Below, piece after piece: positions 1,015-46,844 of a DNA stretch of 64,000 bases; within the stretch, counting starts at the first letter, position 1; each line of letters begins with the position of its first letter. The DNA is from Massalongia carnosa (lineage: Eukaryota). Under the pieces are notes generated by a model, which worked only from the letters and a program-made list of their open reading frames with translations, was not told where the DNA came from and made no database searches. The stretch lies in NCBI GenBank assembly GCA_965645245.1, contig OZ287080.1:1364001-1428000 (forward strand), read 5' to 3'. Made by a program: the position numbers and the translations under genes.

Positions 1015-3845
1015 TCATAAACTTACAGCAGGATTCGGAGGAACATGAGTTATCATGTCATGTTGCGATCGCAGAATTACTTCCGGATATACAATGTTAT
1101 CCGTTTTCCAGTCATTTCGTTCCGGAAACAACATACACAATCGAGACACATCCATAACTCGAGATAATGCCACATATAACTGACCATGAGTAAAAGGAGG
1201 AGCTCGCAAATCGACTCCTATCGTGTCCAATGATTAACCTTGCGACTTGTTGACAGTCATAGCAAAGCACAATCGTATCGGAAATTGTTTGCGACTTATG
1301 ATCCAGGGCAACTCGCCTTCCGTGGTATTAAGAAGAATCCGGGGAATTAATCGCGTTTCACCGTTGAATTCTTATCCCAAAATCTTTCCCTCTAGACAGG
1401 TCCACGAAATGTGAGTAAGACGTAATCGGGTGCCGTTACAGAGACCAAGTTTGGGATACAAATTCCGCAAAAAAATGATTCGGGCTCCAAGTTTCAGTTG
1501 CAATTGTGAAGTTTGTATAGACGATGTTTGCAAGGGTTGTAAAAACTCGGGAGGAAGAAAGTCTCCTCGTTCCTGCGCCGTATCGTTCTCTATTTGATCA
1601 ACGGAGTTCAAGGTGTGCGAACCGCCCTGCAATTTATTCAGTACTGCACCGTTTAACTCCGCGACGATATCGTTCCGCAAAGTCAAAATTGCTCGACTTG
1701 CGAAAGAATCCGCATCCAGATGAGCTTGCCGCATGCGATCGGAAGGAAAAACGGTGTCCACGAAACTGTCTAAGTTGTTCAGTTGATTGACTTGTTCCGG
1801 TAGCTGAACACGACCGGAAAAAGCAGGATCATAAGGCATTTTCCCGATCCTGTCCGCAAACGCCTCATTGGCGACTTCGTTACGAATTCGCATGTTTTGA
1901 CGCAAAAACAGGTTTTGAAATCGCGGCCACAGAAGGTGTTTTGAATGTTCGCCGCAACGATGGGTTCCCGATTTCCACGGGGAACAACGGGCAAGATTTG
2001 AGCGAAATCTCCGCCTAACACCATCGGAATAACTCCGAAAGGTCGTCATTACCTAAAAGGTCCGTAAAAGTGCGATGTACGGCCATGAAGCATTGTTTGT
2101 GTTGCATCGGCACCTCATCCCCAATGATTAAGGCTGTGCGTTGCAAAAGACAGTGTAAATGCGTGTTGCGGGTGATATTACACATGCTGTCCTCATTTAA
2201 AATCAAAGGAATTTTCAACCGGGAATGTGAAGTCTGTCCGCTAGGAAGAAGTAAAGCCGCAATGCCGGGAGACGCAACGCAAAGAATGATTTTTTTCTCC
2301 GCCCGAATATCATTGCAAAGAGTCTAATATAAGAAAGTCTTACCTGTTCCTGCAGGTCCGTGAACAAAAAAATGCGCCATTCTAGGATAATCTCTAACTC
2401 CCGCAACAATGGTATCAAAACAGTATTTCTGATCCGCATTCAATTGAGTATATCGTTCATTTCGTAACGTCGTTTCTTCGTTGAAATCGTAAGTCATTTC
2501 TGTAATGGTTCGACCATGCGTGGTGCGGACGGCAGGACCTACAGCGAACAAAGCAGGAGTCCCAGTTATAGTAGAATAGAGCTTGGTCTGCGGACTAAGT
2601 ATTGTGCCTTTTGGTCGGGAGGACAGGTGGCGCAATGGTAGAAATCTATTTACTTCTCGCTTCGTCACAATTTCATTTGCGATCAACGGATTTCCAGTAC
2701 TCCGACCCCAATCGTATGTAAACAGCGGCATATTCTAATCCTCTAATCGTTTTCCTAAATCCGAAAGACCTCCGTTTAACAAATAAAGGCCGTAATCTAA
2801 ATGCGGACTCATTAAATCGTCAGGAACATCAGTCATTGATCGTAATCGATGCGGTAAATCGTCATATATATCATTTGCGTATCGATTCCATAAGGCCGTA
2901 GGATCCGTAACACGACGATCATCGGTTGTGGCCGCATTCTCCCGCAAAGCCTCGCTGGCGGATTTGTAAAGCCTGATAAAGGGATTCATATTGTGCAACA
3001 TCTCTGTTAAACGTCGTACAATATCGGGATCCAATTCTGTATGTTGTCGAGTACGAATCGCGGTTGCTTCGTCGGGATCGTAAAAAACAGTTGAGCAAAG
3101 CGAGGAGAATCGTCAACGGGATCCAAAGGACCTTGCAGGTGATACAGTTCTCCGTGATTTTGAAAACATACCGGTCCACGACCGTTGCGAGGAAGTCGGC
3201 GATCGGGTTTGTAGTTTACGGAGGTGAACGTCAACGTGGAATTATATTTTCGGAGGTTTTTGCGAAATGTGCGGGTTCTAATATCGTCACCAATTAACAG
3301 TTGCCGTAAATAATCAGGAGGAGGCTGAAACGGTGGCAACACGACACCACCTCGCTTGCAACAGGATTTGTATACTCAATCTCGTCTTCTGTCACTCTGA
3401 ACAGCTTCCGTTCCCAATGCCACGCACCGCAGTTTCTGCAATGATATGTCATGTGTTGAATTCGTTGTATCGCGGATTCTAAAGTGTACTGACTTTTAAA
3501 TGCGGCAGGAAAGTTACGATTTGCAGCCGTATGGTCACGGGCTTCAACAGTACGGTCGCGACGACGTGTTCGACGATTTCCTCGTGACTCACGATGATTA
3601 ACAGGTGGAGAAACAGGTCTGGAACTCGCAATGGATGGAGAAATATGTCCGAAACTCGACCTTACGAAACCGCGAGCTCGGTTGTGATTGTACTGACCCG
3701 CTTCTGCTTCGTTGAGCAGCATTTCTTCCCAAATGTTCGGATTTTCCAACTGCAAATCATTTCGATTTGGCGGGCTTGGCGAGTGGAAAGCCGACGATAC
3801 GGGAGAAACGGAATTCGTTATTGAACTGTTAGGCGAACTCTGCAA
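1015..3845 (-). pseudogene. Helitron RepHel (PIF1-family helicase) pseudogene; frameshifted, Rep/HUH domain missing
   Basis: Ordered fragments in shifting frames: CxxC..HW zinc finger (HCRNCGAWHW), FRKNLRKYNSTLTFTS, Walker A GPAGTGKT, Walker B IIGDEVPM, GGDFAQILPVV, LRNLYPKLGLCNGTRL, FTHGQLYVALSRV. Confidence 0.9.
2501..2669. mobile_element. 169-bp solo LTR nested in the Helitron helicase
   Basis: TGTAA...TCACA termini flanked by a perfect 5-bp duplication ATTTC (2496-2500 and 2670-2674). Removing it restores NPLIANEMTYD. Confidence 0.8.
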
Positions 3846-4538
3846 AGATGGAAGAGTGACAGGAGATACAATCGAACTTCTTGGAGCAGGCGGACGCAGG
3901 AAAAGACTAACAGAACGTTTTCGGTGGTCGTAAGATTAGACGAACGCGTTTTGCGGGAGGATTTTCCGGAGAATTCACTTTATTATGCGGTCTACGGAGA
4001 GAATACCATTGTCGTAACGGAATGGGAAGTCGAGAAACGATTGCTCGAGGAGAAGAGCTAGGCTGCAAAGATATAGCGGTAGTCGTTGCTGTTGTTGCGA
4101 AGAGATCAGATAATTGTTAATGCTAAACCCAATTAAGACTACGTTAAACCGAATCGAGGGTTTTCGCAGGTTCATTGAACGGACGGATTTAGCGCAGTTT
4201 TCGGGAACATCAAAACATGAAAAACGCGAACAACGACCACCTCTCGCGGCCCACAACGAACGTAAAAGAACGTAGTTTTCGCGATACGGACTGATATCAA
4301 CAGGGTCAGTTGATCTCCGAAGTTTGACGAAGTGAAACGGTCCGGTACGGTCGAGGCAAGAGGGGAATTTTTGGTCCTGTCCGCAGGGAGGTCCTCCCCG
4401 CATTATTTGATAACTCAGTACTGTTCCGCAAGCCGCGTTCCCTTTTTCGGGTTCAATCTAACCGAATAAGGTAGTGTTGCCCAAAGTAGCAGGGTAACTC
4501 TTTCAGTACTATATAGATTGTTTTCTCTCCATTTAGTA

Positions 4539-4747
4539 CTGTCGCTTGCAAAAGGGTCTGCGCGGACCCTGAAATGGCCACGACACCTCAAAATTTAGCG
4601 AAAATAACGACCAACCAGCCAAACTTCCCTCACCGTCTATGTGATAACTATGCATTACTACCTGTTATAGTACTGAAATTCGTAGCTGAGAATATACTCA
4701 CTGCCATCCCCAGCTCCTCCGCCCTTGCCCGCTCTATTTTTCGTCAA
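4539..4747 (+). repeat. Left terminal inverted repeat (~209 bp)
   Basis: Reverse complement of 8053-8262. The outer 118 bp are identical and the inner part has about ten differences. Contains the internal palindrome AGGGTC-TGCGCG-GACCCT (4553-4570). Confidence 0.95.
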
Positions 4748-4748
4748 G

Positions 4749-5788
4749 ATGCCTCGCCCCCTCAGTCCCGCCATGAGGGAGACAATTACCCTCAGATTTG
4801 TAAGAAATGACGATAACAAAAGAATAGCAGCTGTCACCGGAGTCAGTCTTCGGCAGGTGCAATTGATGAGGTCCAATTGGACGAATTTTGGAGACGTCGT
4901 CGCTCCACAAATAACTCTTGGTCATCGACCTAGAAAGTTGAGTCAGTATCATGAATTGCAACTGTTGGAATTCCTGGAGCAACGCCCCCATGCCTACCTG
5001 GATGAAATGTGCTGGTTTGTCTGGGATGAATTTCAGATTTCCGTCGACGAATCCACTGTCAGTCGTGCCCTCAGACGACTTGGTTGGAATCGAAAGAAGG
5101 TGAGACGTCAGGCAGCTCAACGGAATCAAACTCTACGCGACGGTTGGATGCAACGACTAGGAGGTTGGACTGCCGAGCAATTGGTCTTCCTAGACGAAAG
5201 TGCCGCGTGTGAAAGAACCGGTATTTATCTTCCTATCTTCTTCTCATCTTTCTTCTCATCTCATATATAGGTGATCGTCGATACGGCTGGGCACCGGCCG
5301 GTGTTCCTGCGACCATGGTTCAGGATTTGAGAAGGTCAAAGAGATGGAGCATTCTTCCTGCATTTACGGTCGATGGATATATAGCTTGGGAGGTGCATCA
5401 GGGCTCCATAACTGCATTGATCTTTAATGATTTTGTTCTAAATCACGTCCTTCCTCATTGCACTGCCGACGGAGGCCCTAGATCTGTTTTAGTGTTAGAT
5501 AATGCTCGAATTCATTGGAATGACGATCTCATTCAGATGTGTGAGGCTGCCAACGTCACCTTGGCAAGACTACCTCCTTATTCTCCGGATTTCAATCCAA
5601 TTGAGACGTCGTTTGCATTGCTGAAAGCATGGATTCGTCGAAATGGAGAGATGAGTCTCTCATATACAGAGGTGTATGGAGGGTTCGGACAATTTCTTCG
5701 GGATGCAGTCAAAGAAAGAAGTCGAATGGGAGACCCGGGAAATTTATTTAGAATGGCCGGTATTCAGTATCCCACTATTCAGATCTAG
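4749..5788 (+). CDS. DD34E Tc1/IS630-family transposase, 329 aa, apparently intact (exons 4749-5220, 5271-5788)
   Basis: N-terminal HTH-like regions, then FLDES, a 50-bp GT-AG intron giving ERTG|DRRYGWAP, then LVLDNARIH and LPPYSPDFNPIE with 34 residues between D and E. Confidence 0.93.
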
Positions 5789-5839
5789 ATCTAGATTGCT
5801 GTCTGCAGACATCTTGTCTGTCTCATTTCGAAATCTAAT

Positions 5840-8031
5840 CTAATATTCTTCTTCGGCATAGTCGTATTCTAGATTATACGTATTTTCCAACTCATCCTCC
5901 TCAATGGCATCTTCCATTCTCGGATCAACCCTTTTTATCTCCCCTAGTGTCTCATCCACCTCTTCCTCATCCACCTCTTCCTCATCCACCTCTTCCTCAT
6001 CCACCTCTTCCTCATCCACCCCTTCCTCATCCACCTCTTCCTCATCCACCTCTTCCTCATCCACCTCTTCCTCATCCACCTCTTCCTCATCCACCTCTTT
6101 TATGACCTGAGTATTGGCCTGAGTGGTCATTTGCGAAGTTGGCAGGTAACGTGGACGTCGAGACATTTGCCGAGACGGGGGCGGAGGCATTCGCCGAGAG
6201 GAAGGCGGAGGCATTTGCATCTGCATCTGTCTTCCAAATTTGCTGACATCTCGTGCCAGCTGAATTCCGATACCGGGAGGAATACTCAGCTTCGACCAGA
6301 AGGACTGATGCTCAATACCCTTTCATGTCTGGATAGTCATTAAATCGTACCCACCTTCCATCAGTCGATCGTACGCATGCCTCAGTACGCCTTTCAGATG
6401 AGGTTTGGATTGGATATGCCAATTGACATAGTCTTCCATATCTTCCTCCACTGGACTGCTCGGAGCGGCGGGAGGGGCGACGACGGAGGGGGCATAACTT
6501 CCTTGACGATCTCTTCGATCCACAGGCGTTTCGTCTCGATGACGTCCGAAGTCGGAAGCTTGAGAAGGAGAATAAGAAGGAAACTGGGACGAATGAAGCT
6601 GGGGAAGTGGTGAAGAAGGAATAAATGCCGAGGGGTTGGCAAATGCTGAGGGGTTGACAAACGTCGAGGGGGGGGCAAATGCCCAGGGGGGGAAGGATTG
6701 ATACGCGGGATGCTGATAGATGGGATGCAAATGTCTGGTCGAATCTTCCTGACTTTCCTGTTTCGGAGTCGATGATGCAGTCTTCCTTTTACCTTTTTGC
6801 GAATACATACTTTCCCTGATAGTCGATGGAGGCATCTGAGAAGTGACTCCCGAAACGTCATCATCCAATGCCTTATTCCAAGCCACGAACTGATGACTGC
6901 TGATAATGTAATGTTGATCTCTTTCTTCATCGTTCCAACAGTATCGGCCGAAATTCTCACATGTCTTCTTCTTACAGCCATGCATAGATTGTAGAGCCGT
7001 CATTCTTTCAACTGTCTGACCATGAAGAATGGCCCTCTCCTCCAACTCCTTCTGCAATTTCAAGGTGGCCGTTCCCAACTTTTTGGAAACGGCAGCAGTC
7101 GGATCTTCTGGAATTTCACCGCTTTTGGTCCGAGCGAATTGATAGATTAGATCGACGGCCAAACTTTTTGCTCCATTCTCATATCGGAAAATCAAGACTT
7201 CTTCAATTGGAAGCCAAGACTCTTCCAACATCAGAGACATACGTTCTTGAGGTTTGATGCCATTCCATGCAACAGTGGCTTTGACATTGACTAGTCGACA
7301 AGCAAAAGTTTTGTCATCTGCATGACGTTGAGCCTTTAAACTCATCTCATTGAGATGAGGTCTGAAAAGAATCTCTTTTCGAATTCCGATTCCGAGTTAA
7401 CTTTTCGAGTACTGGACATCTGATGAACGACATCCTTTTCAAACATCACCGTCACATTCAGCAGGTAGGTGATGACAATGGGCGAGTCTGACGAGGGCGT
7501 CTTCTTGGTCTTGGTACGTGGATTTGACTTTGGCTTTCTAGTAGTGGCATTTTTGACAATCTTCTTTGCAGCAGAAACGAAAACATTCTCCTCAGCACTC
7601 TCGACTTCTTCCTCAACATTCCCCTCGGCAATCTCCTCGACATTCCCCTCGACACTTTCTACATCTACGTCATTCTCCGAGTCAATTGTATCATCTTCGT
7701 CATCCGGGACCATTAGGGATGCATAATAATTCGAGCCGGGAGGCGGCCTGGGCTTGATAATGGGAGGGGGCTTTGCTTTGGGAGGCTTTGCTTTGGGAGG
7801 CTTTGCTTTGGAAGACTTTGCTTGGGGGGGGGGCTTTGTCTTGGGAACGATCTTTTGCCTGCGAGATGCCTTCGGAGCTGAGGTTGGCGTCGATATGGGA
7901 TCATCGTCGTCGACCGCATCTTTGCCCTTCGGCCCCGCCAAGGTCAGTTTTATCTTTGCCTTTACAGGCTCTGTCGAGGCATTTGGAGGCCCGGTATTCG
8001 CTCGTTTTGAGCGAGGACCTCTTAGTTTCAT
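5840..8031 (-). pseudogene. Transposon cargo gene (~730 codons) with CCCH zinc-finger-like and SAM-like regions and an acidic tail; one frameshift and one in-frame TGA
   Basis: Three listed ORFs join into one: a frameshift near 7345, and TGA at 6323-6325 in frame with the 5840-6226 ORF (IQT*KGIEHQSFWSKLSIPPGIGIQLARDVSKF). Motif C-x4-C-x6-CW-x8-H is present. Confidence 0.7.
5951..6100. repeat. 15-bp tandem repeat x10 encoding (EEVDE)n
   Basis: Unit CTCATCCACCTCTTC, near-perfect. Confidence 0.95.
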
Positions 8032-8052
8032 GTCGAAGAATGGGGGGGAGAT

Positions 8053-8262
8053 TTGACGAAAAATAGAGCGGGCAAGGGCGAAGGAGCTGGGGATGGCAGT
8101 GACTATTTTCTACAGCTACGAATTTCAGTACTAGAGCAGGTGACAATGCATAGTTATCACATAGACGGTGAGGGAAGTTTGGCTGGTTGGTCGTTATTTT
8201 CGCTAAATTTTGAGGTGTCGTGGCCATTTCAGGGTCCGCGCAGACCCTTTTGCAAGCGACAG
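8053..8262 (-). repeat. Right terminal inverted repeat
   Basis: Reverse complement of 4539-4747. Confidence 0.95.
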
Positions 8263-10010
8263 TAATCCGTTTCGCTTTCACTCAATTTTTTACTTCATGA
8301 GATAACCACTTGTTTATCAAACATTAGGACAAGGGCTAGTCACATTAGGTAGCTTTAGTATCCAATCTTTCAAGGCTTCTAGAATATCAGCTATGCTTGC
8401 GTTGGCATTGGCGAGAACAAAAAATTTCTGGGGAAGCATTGAGTGGTGGAAGGAATGTTGAGGTTACATTGTTTATCATTGTTTTTATTTTATTTGATTC
8501 CATTCGTCCGTAACATCTCCGCACAAGAACGAGAATTGAAGACATCATGGTTCCCGCACTTGGCTGGATTGGAAGTGGGCGCAGAAAGAAAGTTCGATGT
8601 TATCGTATCTGCATATTTTCAACCAAACTCCTGGGTTATTGAAATACATAATTTAGGCCCAGATCATCTATGAATAGATTTGATTGGTTGATCGGAGGAC
8701 ATTCCGTATCCGTCCAGATTGCTGCAAGATCTGCTTTACACCACATATAAGGTTTTCGGGTGGAAGTCATATGAACCACTCTTTCAAGCACGTTACCCAG
8801 AGATGCTGGCAAAGAATATTCGCTTCAAATTCTGTCCCACACAGTGAACGCGGGGGCATGATGGTGATCTTCGTATCCGATTCGTGTGTTAACCACAAGA
8901 GATCTTAGAGCTAGATGGCAGAGGTATCGCGGCAAGCTGGCACGAGCTTTCTGAGCAATAGGCTAGAGAACATGATGGCGGTAAATAAGATAGCTGCCTT
9001 AAGGACATATCAGCAAGCGTTCATCCCTCGAAGAAGTTAGTGGAGCTCTTTGCTGACTGACCAAACCATTTGGGTTTCAATTGCATCAAAGCTAACAAAG
9101 CAAATTGCTCATATACGTCATACTTCACGAGGATAAGCAAGACGTCTAAGAAAGGAAAAACATGGACCCTTGTTCCTAGGGAAGTCTGTTACACATTAGT
9201 TCATCAAGTTTCCCCCCACACAAAGTCCTCGGAGAAGTAAAGTTCAATGGTATGTAATCGGTTTTGTTCCATCTCCACAACGTAGTTTGGGGGACTCAAA
9301 ACCCAATCACTGACCGAGTGCCTTCTTAAACAAGCCCTACTACTAGAATCCCCGCTTCTTCGCACATCTGAAGAATTCTGTAAAACATAACCCGGCTATC
9401 AGAGTAGGTCCGAGGATAGCCAAGATGTATTCTTTCCCCTCTTTCGCCAGCTTCGGTAACCAATGGTGTAGATCAACTTGCTCGGACATGTTCCTATTCG
9501 ACAAAAAACCATCGCATGCGACTCGAATATTGGCATCTAAGGCACAGGCGGAGAAAGTATATATCGTGCAAAGAAGCAGAGCTTGACTAATATCCAAGGA
9601 GTTGACCCTACATGTTCATGTATTTGGTCACAATGTAGCTTTGTGATGCAGCCAGCTCTCGACGTCGTCAAATGGCCCGGCCATATCTTATCGGCGAAGC
9701 TCGGCGACTATGGCAATTCGTTGAGAGCGGAAGGAAATTGGTAGCATAAAGTTGCTGCAATAAACTTTGCATATGCTCACCAAATCTCGTCTGCGCGTTT
9801 CTTTTTGTTGATATTTCTGCACTTCACTCCTTTTGCAATCAAGTGCCAACGTCATGGTCTCTCCATTTCCTTTCCATTTTCAAGGTAGAGCTGAGGACAT
9901 AAAACGAGGCCTTAACCCTCTCTATTTCTCTTCAGAGTAACTTTCTTGTCATCACTCTTAACTCACACCTATAACAAGACCATAACTATACCAGATTACC
10001 TACCGTAGTC

Positions 10011-30793: not shown

Positions 30794-31742
30794 GCATGCT
30801 AGTGACAAAAAACGCTAACACCAAAAATTTCGTTTGCTGTCTATCTTGCATGCTATTTACATTAAACAATTCATCATCCAGTTATTTTACCTTTCTTATC
30901 AAGCACATCATCGAATTTCCTGAGCATTTTAATGAAAAGATGAGTCAAAGAGTGTATATTGACTTCATTTTGGAACCTGTGGTCAAGTCATGGCTTGAAA
31001 AAGGTGATGATTTTATTTTGGAAGAGGATGGAAACTCCTCCGGACATGGCTCAGGAAAAGACAACATCGTACGAAGATGGAAAGACGAGCATCAGTTGAA
31101 ACACTTCTTCAATTGTCCTCATTCTTCCGATCTTTCACCGATTGAAAATTGCTGACAGGTGCCCAAGCAAGTCGTTGGTCGTCAATCTCATTAGAATGGT
31201 CAAACCACAACTGCTGCAATCAAAGAAGGATGAGAGAAGCTTTCTCAGAGCAAGATCAACGAATGGATAGCATCAATGCTCAAAAGAATTGATAATGTGC
31301 TTGATACTGTGGCGGGGCCACACATGCTATATAAATGATCAGGTGACAAGACAGGCCTGTGCAGCCGAGAGTGGGAATAAAAAGTTTTTTTTTGCTGGCG
31401 TTTTCTCGCACATCTCGAAGAACATTCTCACATACATCTCAACACATCATCTTTGTCACATAGTCATAGTGACAACACATTCATTTGTGCAGTCGTCTAG
31501 TCGAGTTCATCACATCTCTAGTCAGCCGTATACCCATTCGATCATTTGTGTGTTCACTGCTCATTTGATCATCTATCTATCACGTCGCACCTCCTTTCAT
31601 TAGCACGCATCTTTGCCATTCATCACCCATTCTCAATATGAAAGGTAAAATGACTGGATGATGAATTGTTTAATGTAAATAGCATGCAACATAGACAGCA
31701 AGCGAAAATTTTGGTGTTCGCGTTTTTTTGTCACTAGCGTGC
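30794..31742 (+). mobile_element. Internally deleted Tc1-family (DD37E/TRT-like) element with ~100-bp TIRs
   Basis: Inverted repeats 30794-30896 and 31640-31742. Only the C-terminal catalytic fragment remains: LEEDGNSSGHG...FFNCPHSSDLSPIENC*. Confidence 0.85.
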
Positions 31743-33067: not shown

Positions 33068-36000
33068 ATGAGTTTTGGATTCAGCGTGGGCGACTTCATC
33101 GCCGTGTCCAGGCTTGTCAGCGATATCCAAAGTCGATTGAGGAATGCTCCAGATCAATTTAAAGCAGTATCTGCTGAGTGGGTTCCATCAAAGTCGATCA
33201 TTTCTTTCAGTCTACTTTGTTTGATAGAGTTAGGAGTCTTTCGGATATTCTCTGCGACTTAGAAAATGTTTTAAACAAGCGAAGTCTTACCGCGCGCCAG
33301 AAACAAGATTTGCATAGTATCGTTGAAGGATGTCGCGACGTCCTAATTGACCTGAATAAGGTGATGGACAAATATCATTGCTTGATCGTTAGTCCTAAAA
33401 GCCTTGGCGACAAATCTCAAAGACTATGGAAGAAGTTGAGATGGGAAATCCGATCACATAACGGAACTTCGTTCACGTATAATATCAAACATAAGCCTTC
33501 TGAATATTTTCAATGGAAGCCTAATCAAGTGAGAGATGCTCATTAGGTTAATCATTTCTATCTCGTTAACGATTCCAAGCAATATGTCTCATGCAACGAA
33601 AGACGGTGTGGATCGACTAAACAAGCATCAAGATGATAGGGAGCGGTTTATTGTTGAAGATTGGCTTTCATCCGCGGATTTCGCTGCACAGCAGACTGAC
33701 TTTATAAGTAGACGTCAAGAAGGGACCGGCCAATGGTTATTGAAATCTAACGAATTCAAAACCTGGCTTGATGGAACAAAAAAAACTCTATTCTGTCCCG
33801 GAATTCCAGGAGCTGGCAAGACAATCCTAACTTCCATTGTTATCGACCATCTTTGGACCAAATTTCAGGCTGATAGTAAGATCCGTATCGTGTACTTATA
33901 TTGTAGCTACAAAAGGCAGCAAGAGCAGAGCCTCAGAGATCTTATAGCTAGTTTGCTCAAGCAACTTGTCAAAGGACTCTCCGTCTTGCCAAACAACATA
34001 AAGAGTCCATATCGGCTTCATGTGGCAAGAGATACTCGCCCTTCGATTGACGAGTTTATAACTATACTTCATTCTGTCATTGACCGTTATTCCAAAATTT
34101 TCTTCGTCATTGATGCGCTTGATGAGTGTACCACCAGCGATAGAACTCGAGAACGGTTGCTGGAGCATATTTTCAAGATTCAGTCTTATACAACGGCGGC
34201 TTTATTCGTAACTTCGAGGTTTCTTCCTGAGATAACGGCAATATTTAAGAAAGAGATGTCGATAGAGATTCGTGCCAGCGCTGACGACGTCAGAAAATAT
34301 CTTGACACACGTATAACGGAGTTGTCCAGGTGTGTTTTACGGAACTCCGCTCTGCAGGATAACATCAAAACCGAAATTGTGAAGGCAGTTGACGGAATGT
34401 AGGTAATTTTACATCGTTCACAACAACTGAAGCAACTAATGATCAATTAGGTTTCTTCTAGCTCAGCTTCATTTGGACTCGCTTTCCGGAAAAACAACGC
34501 CCAAAGCCGTTAGGCTTGCGCTATCACAACTACCCAAAGGATCGAAAGCATTAGATGCTGCCTATGACGAAGCCTTAGAAAGAATTGAAGGCCAGAAACC
34601 AGGCTTTCCAGAGCTTGCTAAACGTGTCCTGTGCTGGATCACTTATACAAATCGGCAATTGACTGTTATGGAACTTCAGCATGCCTTAGCAATTGAGGTT
34701 GGCGAATTTGAGCTCGATGAAGAGAACTTTTGCGAGATTGAGGAAATGGTTTCCGTCTGCGCCGGGCTAGTGACAATTGATCCAGAAACAGACGTAATCC
34801 GCCTGGCTCATTATACGACCCAGGAATATTTTGAACGTATACAACCGCTATGGGCACCAGAGTTTCAAACCGACATTTCCATAGCTTGTCTAACCTATAT
34901 ATCTTTTACTACGTTTGAAATGGGTCCTTGTGTTAAGAATGAGGTTCTTCAAGCACGATTGCAACAGAACGTTTTTCTTTACTATGCTGCCGAGCATTGG
35001 GGGCACCATGTTCGTGCAGCTGCGAATGAAATTGTGAACGACTTTGCTTTTAGATTTCTCAATGACGATTTGAAAGCCTCTTGCTCCATTCAAGTACTAA
35101 TGCGCTATGGACAGGATTCATACCTTAAAAAATGATTTCTCTGGCTACGACCCTGGAAATCCTAACCGATTCACAGCGACACATCTTGCAGCATACTTTG
35201 CGCTAACGGAAGTAATGGGAGCTTTATTAAGAAGCGGTTACTCACCAGACGCAAAAGATGAGTATGGCAGAACGCCGCTAGCTTGGGCAGCCGCGTGCGG
35301 GCACGATTCAATGGTGAAGGTGCTATTGAAGCGTGCCGATGTTGATGCGGACTCGAAAGATCGTTACGAACGAACTCCGTTGGCCCAGGCAGCAGAATAT
35401 GGGCACGAGGCGGTGGTGAGATTGCTGATCGAGCGGGACGACGTCAATGTAGATTCAAAGACATAGAGGCCGAAAAAACGCCATTATCTAGAGCAGCAGA
35501 AAAGGGACACGAGGTAGTGGTGAATTTACTAATCAAGCGGGACGATGTCATAGTTGACTCAAAAGGCGCTAACGGACGAACACCGTTAGGTGAGGCGGCA
35601 AAAAATGGACACGAGGTAGTGGTTAAACTGCTGATTGAGCGTGACGACGTGAAAGCGGATTCGAACGATTTTTCTCATAATACGCCCTTATCTTGGGCGG
35701 TTAGGAATGGCCACGAAGCGGTGGCAAAACTTTTGCTGAAGCGGGACGACGTCAACGTAAATCCAAGAAATACGATGGGTGCAACACCGCTAGCTTCAGC
35801 GTGTTTTGCCGGGAACGAAGCAATGATTAGGCTGCTGATGGAACGAACCGATCTTGAGCTGAACTCAAGGAATAATAGCGGTTGCACGCCATTTTATGAA
35901 GCGGCATGGGGAGGGCACGAAAGAATAGTGAAATTGTTGATGGAACGAACCGATCTCCAGTTAGACACGAGAGATGATTATAATATAACGCCGTTGATTT

Positions 36001-36667
36001 CGGCGGCCCAAAGAGGGCATGAAAGGGTGGTGCAATTGCTGCTGGAACGAAACGAAGTCGACCCTAATTCTAGGAATGACAGAGGTGAGAGTCCGCTGAC
36101 TTCGGCAGCCCGGCATGGACACGGGGAGGTGGTGAAATTGCTGCTGGAACGAAAAGAGCTTGATCCTAATTCTAAAAATGACAAAGGTGAGACTCCACTG
36201 GCTTTGGCAGCTTGGCATGGGCGCGAGGAGTGGTGGCATTACTGCTGGAACGCAAGAACGTTGATTGGGATCCCCCGAATCGCGAAGGCGACACGCCGCT
36301 AGTGTCAGCAGCCGAAAATGGGTATGAACGAATAGTGAAATTGCTGCTAGAACGAAACAAAGTCAATCCAAATTTCAGAAGTAGCAGAGTCCGTCCCCCG
36401 CCTGATTTCGATGTCTGGGATGGACATGAGAGGCGGTGGAAATTGCTGAAGCCAAGCGACGGCACACCGCAGCGCATAGATGACAGAGGTAACACGCCGC
36501 TGACTTTCGCAGCCAAGAATGGGCACGAGGGAGTGGTAAAATTGCTGCTGGAACGAAAAGACGTCGATCCGAATCCCACAAATACCAAAGGTGAAACGCC
36601 GCTGGCTTTGGCAACCAAGTATGGGCGCGTGGGAGTGGTAAGGCTGCTGAAGCAATATATCTCCTAA
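33068..36667 (+). pseudogene. Fungal NLR-like gene: HeLo-like/SesA-type N-terminus, NACHT, ankyrin repeats; at least four frameshifts
   Basis: MSFGFSVGDF start, GTGQWLL, Walker A GIPGAGKT, Walker B VIDALDEC, RLAHYTTQEYF, more than 12 TPL..AA..GH ankyrin repeats. Frame breaks near 33447, 35130, 35465 and 36228. Confidence 0.85.
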
Positions 36668-44601: not shown

Positions 44602-46844
44602 ACGTAACTCACTGGGCAACGGGACTAACTAAATTTCGCTTAATTTCTACAGCCTTTGCATGCAACTTAATCACATTTTACGTGGTTGACGTACAATACG
44701 ACCCCGTCTGGTAGTTTGAACCTTCTTCACCTCCTCCACCACCTCCACCTCCACCTCTACCCCCCCACTCACCTTCACCTCCTCCACCCCCTCCACCTCT
44801 TCTGTCATTGGTTGAAGCACGGGAGGAGGTAGCAATCGTCTTTGAAAAGAACAAATAGGCTTACTTTGTGAACTATCAGGTGCTTTCTGAGGACTTTTCT
44901 GAGGACTTTTCGTCGAAGATGCAGTAGACGTTTGTCCTAGTAAATCAGGTCCAAATCGACACATTTCCCTGAAAGTTTTGATAAGGTCCTGCTCAGCTCG
45001 TTTTAGCTGAGCGGCCTTCTTTTTTTCGTCTTTCACCTTTTGTTTATCTTTGGCCCATTGCTGTCTTTGTTGAACGTCTTCAAGGCTTAGAACTCGAGCC
45101 TTTCCTCCATAGTGAGCCCCGCTACGATTGGCTCGATGATGGCGCCGTACATTGGCCCGAAGAAGCTCGTTGTTGGTGATACGTAGCAAGGTAGAGTCTG
45201 CGAAGGCATATTTAGCGCCTTTTATCAATTTATTTAGCGCTCGAACGGGAGTCGAGTCTGATTCTTCATCATTTCGAATTCGACGAATCAGTTGATTTAT
45301 TTGATCGATATTTGCAGGTGTCTTTTCAATTTCGTGAGAGTTTTGAAGGGTTGTCGGAGTGTTAGGATGAGAGGAGGTGATATTCGTGGTGGTGGTAGTA
45401 GTAGTGGTGGTGGTGGTGGTGGTAGCGGTGGTGATGATGCTATCAGTCTTTCGCAACACCGATTGTTTATTAGTGAGTTTTTGAAGAACTGATGACGGAT
45501 TGTATGGTACTAATCCGGTTGCTCTCCATGCAGTCAGCACGTTTTTTGTGTTGATTGCTTCTTTTCTTGCTTTTTGAATGATCTTCAGAAAATCCACCTT
45601 GTCCACTGAACAGACGTTGAATCGGGTGACGACCTCCAATTGTTTTTTGTACTCCCGTGATAAGGGCCCAAAAACACTCACGTCCAGAGGTTGCAACATA
45701 TGGGTAGTATGTGGAGGTAGACACAAAAGAATGATTTTCTTTTCGTTGCAAAACCTGATGAATTCGGTAGAAATATGGGAAGCATGACCATCTACTATAA
45801 GAAGTCGATATTCACCGTGTAGATATTTTGCAGTAGCAGGTTCAAAACACTTTTTCAACCAATCAAGACCTAGTTCATTGTCTGTCCATCCGTTTTCGCT
45901 GGTAGCTATTTCAGTGTCAATGTCCTCCAGTGCATCGTACCAGGCCTTTTGCTTGTTGACTCCTTTGAAGATGACGAAAAGAGGTAAACTTCGACCGGTA
46001 GTACAAATGGACTCGATCAATGACACCTATTCTCGATTACCTGACTGTGCTGAAAAGGCTTGCTTTTCGTGCTTAGAAATTACTACTTTAGCACTAGCAG
46101 CTACCCCCATCATGAATCCCTTTTCGTCCATGTTGTAGATGTCTTCATCAAGAATTCCGTGCTTTTCTTTCATGGAGAGGAAAAGGTCAAACCAGTGCTG
46201 AAATATCTCTTCATTCTCAGCGAATAATCGTTCTTGATCTAGTGTGCGACTGTATTTAGCCTGCAGATCGGGATGACGATGTAAAAAATACTGTTGCCAA
46301 TTGACTCCTAGCACAGTATGATTCCCCCTTGCTCGTAGTAATTCTATGGCCATCTGACGTAGCTGAGCTATTTTAGCAGGCCAGCCCCAGGCGTACAGTT
46401 GTAAAACCCAGTTCTTCAAAGCGTCTTCCTCCTCGGGGGTCAGCAGTTGTTTAGTTTGATCAGACGTAAATCGTGATTGACGACCCTGAATGCGGGCATG
46501 AAGGGTAGACTTTGAAACATCATATAGAAAAGCTGCCTTCGTAATGGAAAGAGCTCCATCGGCCTGTTTCTAGGCCAAAAAGGCTGACTGTAATCGTTGT
46601 TGATAGGTGGAGGTGGGGTGAAAACATGAAGGAATGGAGGTCTTGTGGGAGGTGGTTTTTTTACCTACACCCATGATTATAAAGTTTCAAAATGATGAAT
46701 ATAATCTACTGTGATGTCTGAAGCTGAATTTGTATGTAAAATGTATGTAATGAAGGCTTCATCATCTAGAGTGGTCAAAAAGTGATGATTTCGGAATTAC
46801 TTAGTCCCGTTGCCCAGTTTGTCCCGTTGCCCAGTGAGTTACGT
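44602..46844 (-). mobile_element. Fot1/pogo-family DNA transposon, 2243 bp, TA target duplication
   Basis: TIR ACGTAACTCACTGGGCAACGGGAC at both ends; TA at 44600-44601 and 46845-46846; subterminal duplicate of GTCCCGTTGCCCAGT at the right end. Confidence 0.95.
44671..46674 (-). pseudogene. DD35D pogo/Fot1 transposase with two in-frame TAG stops
   Basis: HTH and CENPB-like N-terminus, YNMDEKGF, LIVDGHASH, QPLDV. Stops at 46570-46572 and 46027-46029 (GNRE* where GNREW is expected). Poly-Thr microsatellite at ~45388-45433. Confidence 0.92.

Follow-up and report, generated by a model that had tools for sequence, protein, structure and literature searches.

The window, the whole 64-kb stretch of DNA analysed here, contains at positions 4539-8262 a real transposon copy of 3724 bp, with TA directly outside both terminal inverted repeats (TIRs) as target-site duplications (4537-4538 on the left and 8263-8264 on the right). 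Inverted-repeat comparison delimits a left TIR (4539-4747, + strand) and a right TIR (8053-8262, − strand) of about 210 bp with one indel between them. The outer 118 bp (4539-4656 on the left) are identical in the two arms, and all mismatches are confined to the stretch 119-181 bp from the ends, the inverted arms matching at 97% over 4537-4688 and 8113-8264 and at 95% over 4689-4747 and 8053-8111. Since only two inverted pairs of at least 60 nt occur across the window, this pairing is not due to chance. On the left, only base 4748 lies between the TIR and the ATG of a + strand gene (4749); on the right, a 21-bp spacer (8032-8052), which varies among copies at 8049/8050, separates the TIR from the ATG of a − strand gene (8031). 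The two genes converge on stop codons at 5786-5788 (+) and 5840-5842 (−), leaving a 51-bp spacer (5789-5839). The TA-flanked boundaries, the ~210-bp arms with identical outer 118 bp, the left TIR end at 4747 and the spacings of 1, about 21 and 51 bp had been claimed in a sequence-only reading of this DNA, and all were borne out by the sequence and the alignment of the arms.

The left flank of the element is a very high-copy repeat and the right flank is single-copy; the window is rich in repeats, with further transposon remnants at 30807-31728 and 44674-46026. No reads joining across 4539-8262, as at an element-free junction, were found in any sequencing run, run X5 covering simple repeat only. 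A search of 4000-9000 for Rfam RNA families found none, and a sigma-70/terminator scan, whose bacterial models are not applicable to a eukaryote, gave fewer sites than shuffled sequences.

The transposase and the second gene

The + strand gene is, once spliced as predicted, an intact IS630/Tc1-type DD34E transposase. Exon 1 (4749-5220) carries the DNA-binding helix-turn-helix (HTH) region together with the first of the catalytic D residues; it matches Pfam HTH_33 (2.8e-07; 30.5 bits, over the cut-off of 25) as well as HTH_32 and HTH_23, both under their cut-offs. Exon 2 (5271-5788, including the stop codon) encodes the DDE_3 catalytic core (Pfam 2.1e-24), in which, counted on the translation, the D of LVLDNARIH is spaced from the E of NPIE by 34 intervening residues. 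The gene is interrupted by a putative 50-nt GT..AG intron (5221-5270), and the 329-aa product is open only after its removal. The spliced product aligns to the 285-aa relatives P0036, P0046 and P0048 with no gap at the exon junction, and the two exons match adjoining parts of the NCBIfam IS630 model (positions 13-153 and 160-279). The sequence-only reading had called this transposase intact: the DD34E spacing and the domain models agree with it, while the required intron had been overlooked. We use the label Tc1-type for the combination of TA duplication, TIRs, DDE_3/IS630 core with DD34E and HTH, and not for a tree placement among the DD34E/35E clades (Gambol, Hiker, Dici). Exon 1 is identical to a multi-copy contig (run X1 record 2, 4718-5361, 0 differences), and exon 2 has 767 relatives, including cluster P0023, which is 100% identical and found on four contigs.

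The second gene (5840-8031, − strand) spans about 730 codons if read through, as had been proposed; what the earlier reading overlooked is that there is no intact ORF in this copy, the gene being broken twice and left as ORF fragments of 229, 340 and 160 codons. The first break is a 1-nt loss in an A-run at 7365-7368, where the window has A4 and contigs of runs X1, X3 and X4 have A5 (an A inserted behind 7364, at full depth in 3/3 runs); intact copies read RFFFRPHLNE across this site. The second is an in-frame TGA at 6323-6325, which is Leu (TTA) in other copies (6324 C>A; runs X1, X3 and X4 all show it at full depth). A 15-nt tandem array coding EEEVD repeats (5951-6099) is expanded in this copy and accounts for about 40 of the ~730 read-through codons, compared with two units in other copies such as P0001. 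An intron in place of the frameshift was considered and rejected: the only frame-restoring GT..AG candidate near 7365, of 56 nt, would remove conserved residues that are translated in P0001 (VNSESEFEKRFFFRPHLNE). Intact 584-aa ORF calls are represented by P0001, P0009 and P0010, with the N-terminus found in P0012. Neither the frameshift nor the TGA is present in the read-derived consensus or in P0001, P0009 and P0010, so that the second gene is open there. As assembled, the window copy thus pairs an intact transposase with a broken second gene and would rely on intact copies for the second protein.

Copies of the family in the genome

The window element belongs to a young family (A) of about 6-8 near-identical copies. 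Contigs from runs X1, X3 and X4 bridge the inner TIR to the transposase start (4718-5361 and 4689-5277), the tail-to-tail junction (X1 record 4, 5686-5979, with 0 differences; X3 record 9, 5724-5951) and the region that joins the inner TIR to the beginning of the second gene (7899-8106). Depth on these contigs is 2850-3323 in X1 and 5739-7192 in X3, against 461 and 849-961, respectively, for the single-copy right flank, which corresponds to about 6-8x. Second-gene ORF calls of subfamily A number nine on eight contigs; the transposase cluster P0023 has eight loci, matching the second-gene count, and the five contigs listed for the transposase all belong to the eight that carry the second gene. 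In family A the multi-copy consensus thus contains the two genes side by side, an architecture common to all copies of this family, which answers here the check proposed in the sequence-only reading, namely whether other copies keep the second gene: the two start regions and the tail-to-tail junction are all bridged at multi-copy depth. The single-gene organisation of Tc1-type elements is not what is found here, since a convergent second gene of ~2.2 kb is present in that consensus.

Family A is not RIP-mutated (TpA/ApT 0.47; (CpA+TpG)/(ApC+GpT) 1.42). All four differences among transposase copies are synonymous, and all seven full-length family-A exon-2 ORF calls are open. The second gene is damaged in the window copy and in at least four more of the eight family-A loci; damaged second genes beside open transposases raise the possibility that the element can do without this gene in cis, or altogether. 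A diverged subfamily B (44-65% identity to A in the second protein, with the same N-to-C architecture) contributes 13 second-gene ORF calls on ten contigs. At least 24 B-type transposase loci stand against these 13 calls, so that some elements may lack the second gene. Co-occurrence in subfamily B (8/10 second-gene contigs shared with a transposase) was rejected as evidence of linkage; it is about the level of chance, 16 contigs carrying a B-type transposase.

The second protein and its relatives

A profile search with the second protein recovered 179 clusters of relatives at 50% identity, 69 of them with E<=1e-10; of the 150 clusters listed, 19 are 574-806 aa long. The relatives share conserved Cys/His, Trp and SSPV motifs, and eight positions (C247, C252, C259, H268, W279, S419, S420 and P421) are near-invariant among 40 aligned sequences. 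The second protein thus belongs to a large, widespread and unannotated family with conserved motifs. No Pfam family matched in the window pieces, in 20 long relatives or in the 40 aligned members; NCBIfam, PDB sequence and broader protein searches gave nothing usable, an Atlas search with the whole protein returned only unnamed fungal clusters, and metagenome scans with alignment A3 and with the relative P0174 found no locus in either case.

Outside family A, gene adjacency was judged from contig sizes alone, for ten distant relatives. Four of them lie on contigs of 3407-4066 bp, on which 1.4-1.75 kb remain after the second gene, compared with 1.53 kb in the window element; for two others, contigs of exactly the same length (8756 and 356187) were recorded for the relative of the second protein and for P0068 and P0055, which are relatives of the transposase. 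The multi-copy cluster P0172 includes truncated members. The bridging contigs at ~6-8x depth, the two subfamilies and the 179 diverged clusters together support the claim of the sequence-only reading that the second gene is a dedicated accessory gene, a regular component of the element and neither a one-off capture nor a single-copy host gene.

The structural models contain only three small domains, which are PB1-like, Cys3His and SAM-like in kind; the predicted make-up further includes an N-terminus that is basic and rich in Lys and Pro, and acidic tails. The PB1-like/beta-grasp domain (7100-7482, − strand; P0001 residues 78-205) is modelled by AF2 with pLDDT mostly above 90 and resembles PB1 domains with middling VIA scores (Z 6.0-6.7, rmsd 3.2-3.6 over 83-94 residues) and without a Pfam PB1 match. 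It is followed by a long helix and the putative Cys3His module (6785-7099, − strand; residues 206-310), seen in the AF2 models and the 40-sequence alignment as C-x4-C-x6-C-x8-H with a conserved Trp. Folded alone (pLDDT 82.8), this module gave no fold match in a wide VIA search (best Z 4.5), and an Atlas search with the same part gave no usable match. The SSPV motif and the predicted SAM-like five-helix domain (6215-6460, − strand; residues 419-500) form the best-conserved part; residues 420-500 resemble SAM and RAD51-N domains, again with middling scores (VIA Z 5-6.1), with no Pfam SAM match and an Atlas SAM lead of only 0.79. Foldseek against PDB and BFVD returned only weak beta-grasp look-alikes (rmsd 9-10).

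Possible roles of the second gene and comparison with known transposons

Tc1/mariner elements are the textbook case of transposons that need only their own transposase, and hence serve as tools for gene transfer across a wide range of hosts. For this normally one-gene class, an additional conserved gene that belongs to an undescribed protein family is unusual. We consider it very likely that the locus represents a true two-gene transposon lineage. The reading that we favour, and hold to be probable, is that the window element, in an evidently fungal genome, is one copy of a young, un-RIPped family of two-gene cut-and-paste transposons of the IS630/Tc1 (DD34E) type whose second gene would serve as a transposition helper. 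Both genes would be transcribed inward from putative promoters in the TIRs, as suggested by start codons that lie 1 and 21 bp behind them. The second protein (about 690-730 aa) would then act in trans, and its modelled make-up would suit an oligomerising adaptor with a hypothetical DNA- or chromatin-binding activity. Such an adaptor could pair the two long TIRs, or recruit the transposase to them, by analogy with PIF/Harbinger ORF1; this particular mechanism we put forward only tentatively. A stronger version, in which a widespread fungal Tc1-type lineage is an obligate two-component system that requires the second-protein family to assemble or license the transposition complex, with the family here still active, seems to us somewhat unlikely.

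A second possibility, which we regard as unlikely, is that the gene is element-borne and selected but manages the host, as an anti-silencing or chromatin-opening factor, a transposition brake, or a factor that modulates host defence so that the family continues to be expressed or tolerated. PB1-like and SAM-like domains with long disordered acidic and basic regions are typical of chromatin and signalling scaffolds and not of DNA-sequence readers, and both the un-RIPped state of the family and the intact transposases in copies with broken second genes would fit such a role. Between subfamilies A and B the second protein has diverged by ~40%, compared with 13-17% for the transposase core, about three times faster, as would fit an arms race. 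This divergence is uneven, with identities of 80% in the SAM-like domain, 62-65% in the Cys3His module and 17-63% in the disordered parts, and the conserved Cys3His and SAM-like cores point instead to a stable function rather than rapid adaptation.

A passenger status of the gene, whereby a Tc1-like element picked up a host gene on one occasion (transduplication) and has carried it since without a role, would agree with a family that normally needs the transposase alone and with the broken second genes of the window copy and several others. We nevertheless judge it very unlikely, because the gene occurs alongside diverged partners (in subfamilies A and B, and in relatives of ~20-25% identity on element-sized or transposase-sharing contigs), its relatives are repeat-like and multi-copy with truncated members, its motifs have been kept over deep divergence, which argues for selection while element-borne, and an intron-bearing host-like paralogue was not seen. 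Insertion of the 2.2-kb minus-strand gene from a different mobile element into an ordinary Tc1 copy, followed by amplification of the composite, could be imagined in a repeat-rich window with a high-copy left flank and other transposon remnants, but is extremely improbable given the absence of a second repeat pair or target duplication within 4539-8262 in the inverted-repeat scan, the tight packing (21 bp from TIR to ATG, 51 bp between stops) and the lack of any relation of the second protein to a transposase (hhalign probability 2.4% between the two profiles; no Pfam transposase domain in any second-protein member scanned).

Should the helper reading or the host-management alternative hold, a conserved element-borne second protein would mean that a helper has evolved in part of the Tc1 group, much as in PIF/Harbinger, CACTA and MuDR, or else a host-management factor. 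The element would also provide a first context for a protein family annotated only as 'hypothetical' and comprising at least 179 clusters at 50% identity. As the family is young and un-RIPped, with naturally intact copies and a consensus in which both genes are open, the function of the second gene is testable without reconstruction.

The window element shares with canonical Tc1-type elements (Tc1, the Sleeping Beauty-type IR/DR elements and fungal impala) the TA duplication, the TIRs, an N-terminal HTH and DDE_3 core with DD34E, and a transposase of ~330 aa. Unlike these one-gene elements of 1.3-1.7 kb, it carries a convergent second gene that makes up 59% of its 3.7 kb. The ~210-bp TIRs, which the sequence-only reading took as unusual for Tc1, were overstated as such, since IR/DR elements such as Sleeping Beauty have TIRs of ~200 bp; those contain direct repeats, whereas none of 8 nt or more was found inside the window TIR.

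PIF/Harbinger elements have a different transposase superfamily and target duplication and a Myb-like ORF1, whereas no Myb/SANT Pfam domain was found in the window pieces or the 40 members of the second-protein family. They nonetheless offer the best model of how the second gene might act here, since two separate element-encoded proteins are both required for mobilisation (PMC2836001). The MuDR-like layout noted earlier holds for the convergent genes with ATGs 1 and 21 bp inside the TIRs, and fails for the target duplication and the transposase family: the Mutator superfamily has a MURA-type (MULE) transposase and a 9-bp duplication, in contrast to DDE_3/IS630 and TA here. In maize MuDR, mudrA and mudrB are convergent with promoters in long TIRs, and MURB is of unknown function and narrow distribution (PMC3276141), unlike the widespread homologues (179 clusters) of the second protein, to which no sequence relation would be expected.

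Our literature search found no description of a two-gene fungal Tc1 architecture. A comparable fungal case is Dici1/Dici2 of Diutina catenulata, presented in PMC13469147 as a new ITm family; like the window element, it is TA-flanked, about 4 kb long and DD34E, with young near-identical copies and more than one CDS, which its authors call unusual for ITm. By contrast, Dici transposases measure 473-477 aa (432-478 across the family), longer than the 329 aa found here; beyond them, Dici encodes an orphan of 143-146 aa and a degenerate relic of a transposase, whereas the second protein of the window element has no relation to its transposase, and Dici-family relatives in other fungi possess only one CDS. 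The Ogataea parapolymorpha element Tc1-OP1 (5.66 kb, 169-bp TIRs, DD40E; PMC9977792) is likewise an over-long fungal Tc1-type element with a large extra protein part; this 'domainX' of unknown identity, compared by description only, is joined with the transposase into a single ORF of 1155 aa, whereas the second gene here is separate and convergent.

The Beauveria element hupfer (~3.3 kb, transposase ORF of ~320 aa) is, we presume, a possible relative of the window element. Additional conserved genes also occur elsewhere in the Tc1/mariner group, in TBE/Tec and in Fanzor-carrying elements. The extra genes of TBE are a zinc-finger/kinase ORF and a 22-kDa ORF. The extra gene of Fanzor-carrying elements encodes a RuvC nuclease, whereas TnpB-type Pfam families matched 0/40 members of the second-protein family at E<=1. 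Fanzor (TnpB-like) proteins occur in diverse eukaryotic transposons (PMC3627910), and the three genes of the ciliate TBE all have dN/dS far below 1 (PMC4724952).

Ends and transposase of the element

The element is a two-gene Tc1/IS630-type transposon of 3724 bp occupying positions 4539-8262, as delimited by its TA flanks and inverted arms, with the TA target-site duplication directly outside it at 4537-4538 and 8263-8264. The arms were recovered by a repeat search (152 nt at 97% plus 59 nt at 95%) and independently by blastn (224 bp at 94%), and because just two inverted pairs of at least 60 nt exist in the 64-kb window, they are not a chance pairing. Global alignment revealed that the terminal inverted repeats (TIRs) are identical over the outer 118 bp, that mismatches and a single indel are confined to 119-181 bp from the ends, and that the inner ~30 bp match again. 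The 3724-bp TA-flanked element with identical outer TIRs proposed in the sequence-only reading was thus found by two methods and borne out by the alignment. The spacings given there were also correct when measured on the sequence: one base separates the left TIR from the transposase ATG (4749), 21 bases separate the right TIR from the second-gene ATG (8031, minus strand), and the convergent stop codons are 51 bp apart. From this geometry of start codons and TIRs, both genes would be transcribed inward from the TIRs. No further copy of the element was found within the 64-kb window.

The transposase gene on the plus strand had been called intact; it does yield a product of 329 aa, but is open only after a predicted 50-nt GT..AG intron (5221-5270) is spliced out. 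Exon 1 matches Pfam HTH_33, HTH_32 and HTH_23, exon 2 matches DDE_3 at 2.1e-24, and the two exons match adjoining stretches of the NCBIfam IS630 model (positions 13-153 and 160-279). When aligned with 285-aa relatives of 60-61% identity, the spliced transposase is gap-free across the intron junction. The spacing from the second D to the E, counted on the translation, is 34 residues, which together with the DDE_3 match confirms the proposed DD34E transposase. Exon 2 has 767 relatives. Among the Tc1-type features of the IS630-Tc1-mariner group that were tested, the transposase displays all except "one gene", an assignment made at group level.

The second gene and its copies

A long second gene of ~730 codons had been read on the opposite strand; the gene is there, but in the window copy it is broken by a frameshift and a TGA into three ORF pieces of 229, 340 and 160 codons. 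The first lesion is one base missing in the A-run 7365-7368, where intact copies read RFFFRPHLNE, and the second is the TGA at 6323-6325, where intact copies encode Leu. Both are absent at full depth in contigs of three sequencing runs from two studies (6324 C>A; A added behind 7364). The sole intron candidate for restoring the frame, a 56-nt GT..AG stretch, was rejected because it would take out residues that are translated and conserved in other copies. The changes private to the window copy of the gene comprise one stop, three missense changes, one frameshift and one synonymous change, and the array at 5951-6099 is expanded, with nine pattern matches to a 15-nt unit coding EEEVD vs two units in P0001, an open form of the protein. 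Over the second gene and the right TIR, all six substitutions separating the window copy from the three-run consensus (6324, 6439, 6978, 6985, 7915 and 8107) are transversions, with C or T in the window and A or G in the runs on the plus strand, and the separating indel sits in a homopolymer (7365-7368). Since such a transversion-only spectrum is odd for natural mutation and the frameshift lies in a homopolymer, the differences of the window copy could be assembly error. Repeats of 15 nt (KAKPP units, 7768-7840) encode the Lys/Pro-rich N-terminal part, and the run contigs are interrupted there. Run X4 (organism B) differs by a deletion of 17 nt at 7809 and by two P>S replacements, yet its right-flank junction is the same.

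Copies elsewhere in the genome(s) were drawn from a protein collection whose entries are ORF-style calls that evidently ignore introns and allow alternative starts. The second gene of subfamily A, the element's own near-identical family (93-99% identical), accounts for nine ORF calls on eight contigs. Three of these (P0001, P0009 and P0010) are open 584-aa forms and P0012 has an N-terminus continuous from MKLRGP, the other calls being shortened by frameshifts. The family-A transposase cluster P0023 comprises eight loci, and all five contigs named for it are among the eight that carry the second gene. In the diverged subfamily B (44-65% identical) the second gene has 13 ORF calls on 10 contigs with unchanged N- to C-terminal architecture, and B-type transposases (83-87% identical) occupy at least 24 loci; the overlap of the two, on 8 of the 10 second-gene contigs, is about what chance gives and so proves nothing about linkage.

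Single run contigs extend from the inner TIR into the transposase gene (4718-5361) and over the tail-to-tail junction (5686-5979), in both cases without a difference from the window; a further contig crosses the junction at 5724-5951, and another joins the second-gene start to the inner TIR (7899-8106). They are covered 6-8x as deeply as the single-copy right flank (X1, 2850-3323 vs 461; X3, 5739-7192 vs 849-961), a rough figure rather than a copy number, which agrees with the eight transposase loci. As contigs of multi-copy depth bridge both gene starts and the tail-to-tail junction, the two-gene architecture holds for the whole of family A. This is a two-gene Tc1-type transposon family in which both genes are open in the consensus. 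The transposase copies differ at four sites, in every case synonymously. With TpA/ApT at 0.47 and (CpA+TpG)/(ApC+GpT) at 1.42, the element is not RIP-mutated. The family is young and without RIP mutation, and its particular value lies in these young, un-RIPped, naturally intact copies.

Relatives and possible role of the second protein

A profile search with the second protein returned 179 clusters at E<=1e-3, of which 69 reach E<=1e-10; lengths of 574-806 aa occur in 19 of the 150 clusters listed out of the 179. A convincing Pfam domain was absent from 20 long relatives and present in one of 40 aligned members (DUF7924, 2e-20). Near-invariant in the 40-sequence alignment are C247, C252, C259, H268, W279, P295 and S419-S420-P421 (P0001 numbering). 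Judged by alignment, the second gene is a member of a conserved family. Four of 10 relatives examined sit on contigs of 3407, 3629, 3824 and 4066 bp, which minus the cargo gene leave 1.4-1.75 kb, vs 1.53 kb in the window element; one of the four, P0188 (KAL8738313.1, 3407-bp contig), comes from the MAG of a fungus that forms lichens and is labelled 'hypothetical protein' at NCBI. Two of the 10 lie on contigs of identical size to those of transposase relatives (P0180/P0068, 8756; P0173/P0055, 356187). The small-contig and matching-size data agree in suggesting, indirectly, that the second gene travels with the transposase in several lineages. The relative cluster P0172 is multi-copy, with some members truncated. 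With both genes in the family consensus and the second drawn from a conserved family, the accessory-gene interpretation of the sequence-only reading gains support.

An AlphaFold2 model built with 40 sequences predicts three confident domains, with disordered stretches of basic, acidic or Pro-rich composition between them. The first, residues 78-205, is a beta-grasp most similar to PB1 domains, with middling scores (VIA Z 6.0-6.7). Residues 215-310 comprise a long helix, two small hairpins with the Cys3His residues and two helices; when this part was modelled in isolation (pLDDT 82.8), no known fold could be matched to it (best Z 4.5). For residues 421-500 the model gives a bundle of five helices, whose nearest structural matches are SAM and RAD51 N-terminal domains, again with middling scores (Z 5-6.1). 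Subfamilies A and B agree most in the SAM-like domain (80% identity), followed by the Cys3His part (62-65%) and the PB1-like domain (53-60%), and the disordered parts range over 17-63%. Such a pattern would be expected under selection on folded domains. With its basic tail, its metal-binding module and two modules of types that are known to self-associate, the protein would suit the role of an oligomerising adaptor on DNA or chromatin.

We tentatively prefer to regard the second protein as a trans-acting helper of transposition, which would bring the long TIRs together or recruit the transposase in the manner of PIF/Harbinger ORF1; in PIF/Harbinger both element proteins are described as required (PMC2836001). 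The main rival, somewhat less probable, is a host-management factor acting in anti-silencing or regulation; in its favour, the second protein evolves faster and transposases have stayed intact beside broken second genes. That the gene is a mere passenger fits the data poorly and is improbable, and a nested composite element, fitting poorly too, is more improbable still.

The element has partial parallels in known systems. MuDR, described as having two genes, TIR promoters, convergent transcription and a MURB of unknown function (PMC3276141), has in common with the present element the layout alone, namely two convergent genes. The fungal DD34E elements Dici1/2 of Diutina catenulata, ~4 kb in size, contain three CDSs, which their authors call "unusual" for the group; their transposases measure 473-477 aa, and the extra CDSs are given as an orphan and a transposase relic (PMC13469147), whereas the second protein of the window element bears no relation to its transposase. 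An unknown 'domainX' is reported fused to the transposase in Tc1-OP1 (PMC9977792), three selected genes in ciliate TBEs (PMC4724952), and Fanzor proteins in diverse eukaryotic transposons (PMC3627910). Our literature searches found no earlier description of this two-gene architecture or protein family.

Neighbouring sequences in the window

The left flank at 3539-4518 is a very high-copy repeat (in runs X1 and X3, roughly 40-300x as deep as the single-copy right flank) that ends ~20 bp before the insertion site of the element. Its (CpA+TpG)/(ApC+GpT) ratio is 0.77, unlike that of the element, and the ORFs at 3297-3935 and 3978-4457 (minus strand) have no Pfam match. Between its 93-nt TIRs (94% complementary), a TA-flanked element of ~920 bp at 30807-31728 retains part of a Tc1/mariner-type catalytic C-terminus (...SDLSPIE... 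motif); it belongs to a different Tc1/mariner family and has lost internal sequence. A third DNA-transposon family is represented by a 451-aa ORF at 44674-46026 (minus strand), a pogo/Fot1-type transposase (DDE_1, 2.8e-30). The ORF fragment at 1375-2052 (minus strand) matches the Pif1 helicase 2B domain (5.7e-14) and may be a Helitron-type remnant. At 33533-36299 (plus strand) lies an NLR-like gene encoding NPHP3_N/NACHT, a winged-helix domain and an ankyrin array on 102-nt repeats.
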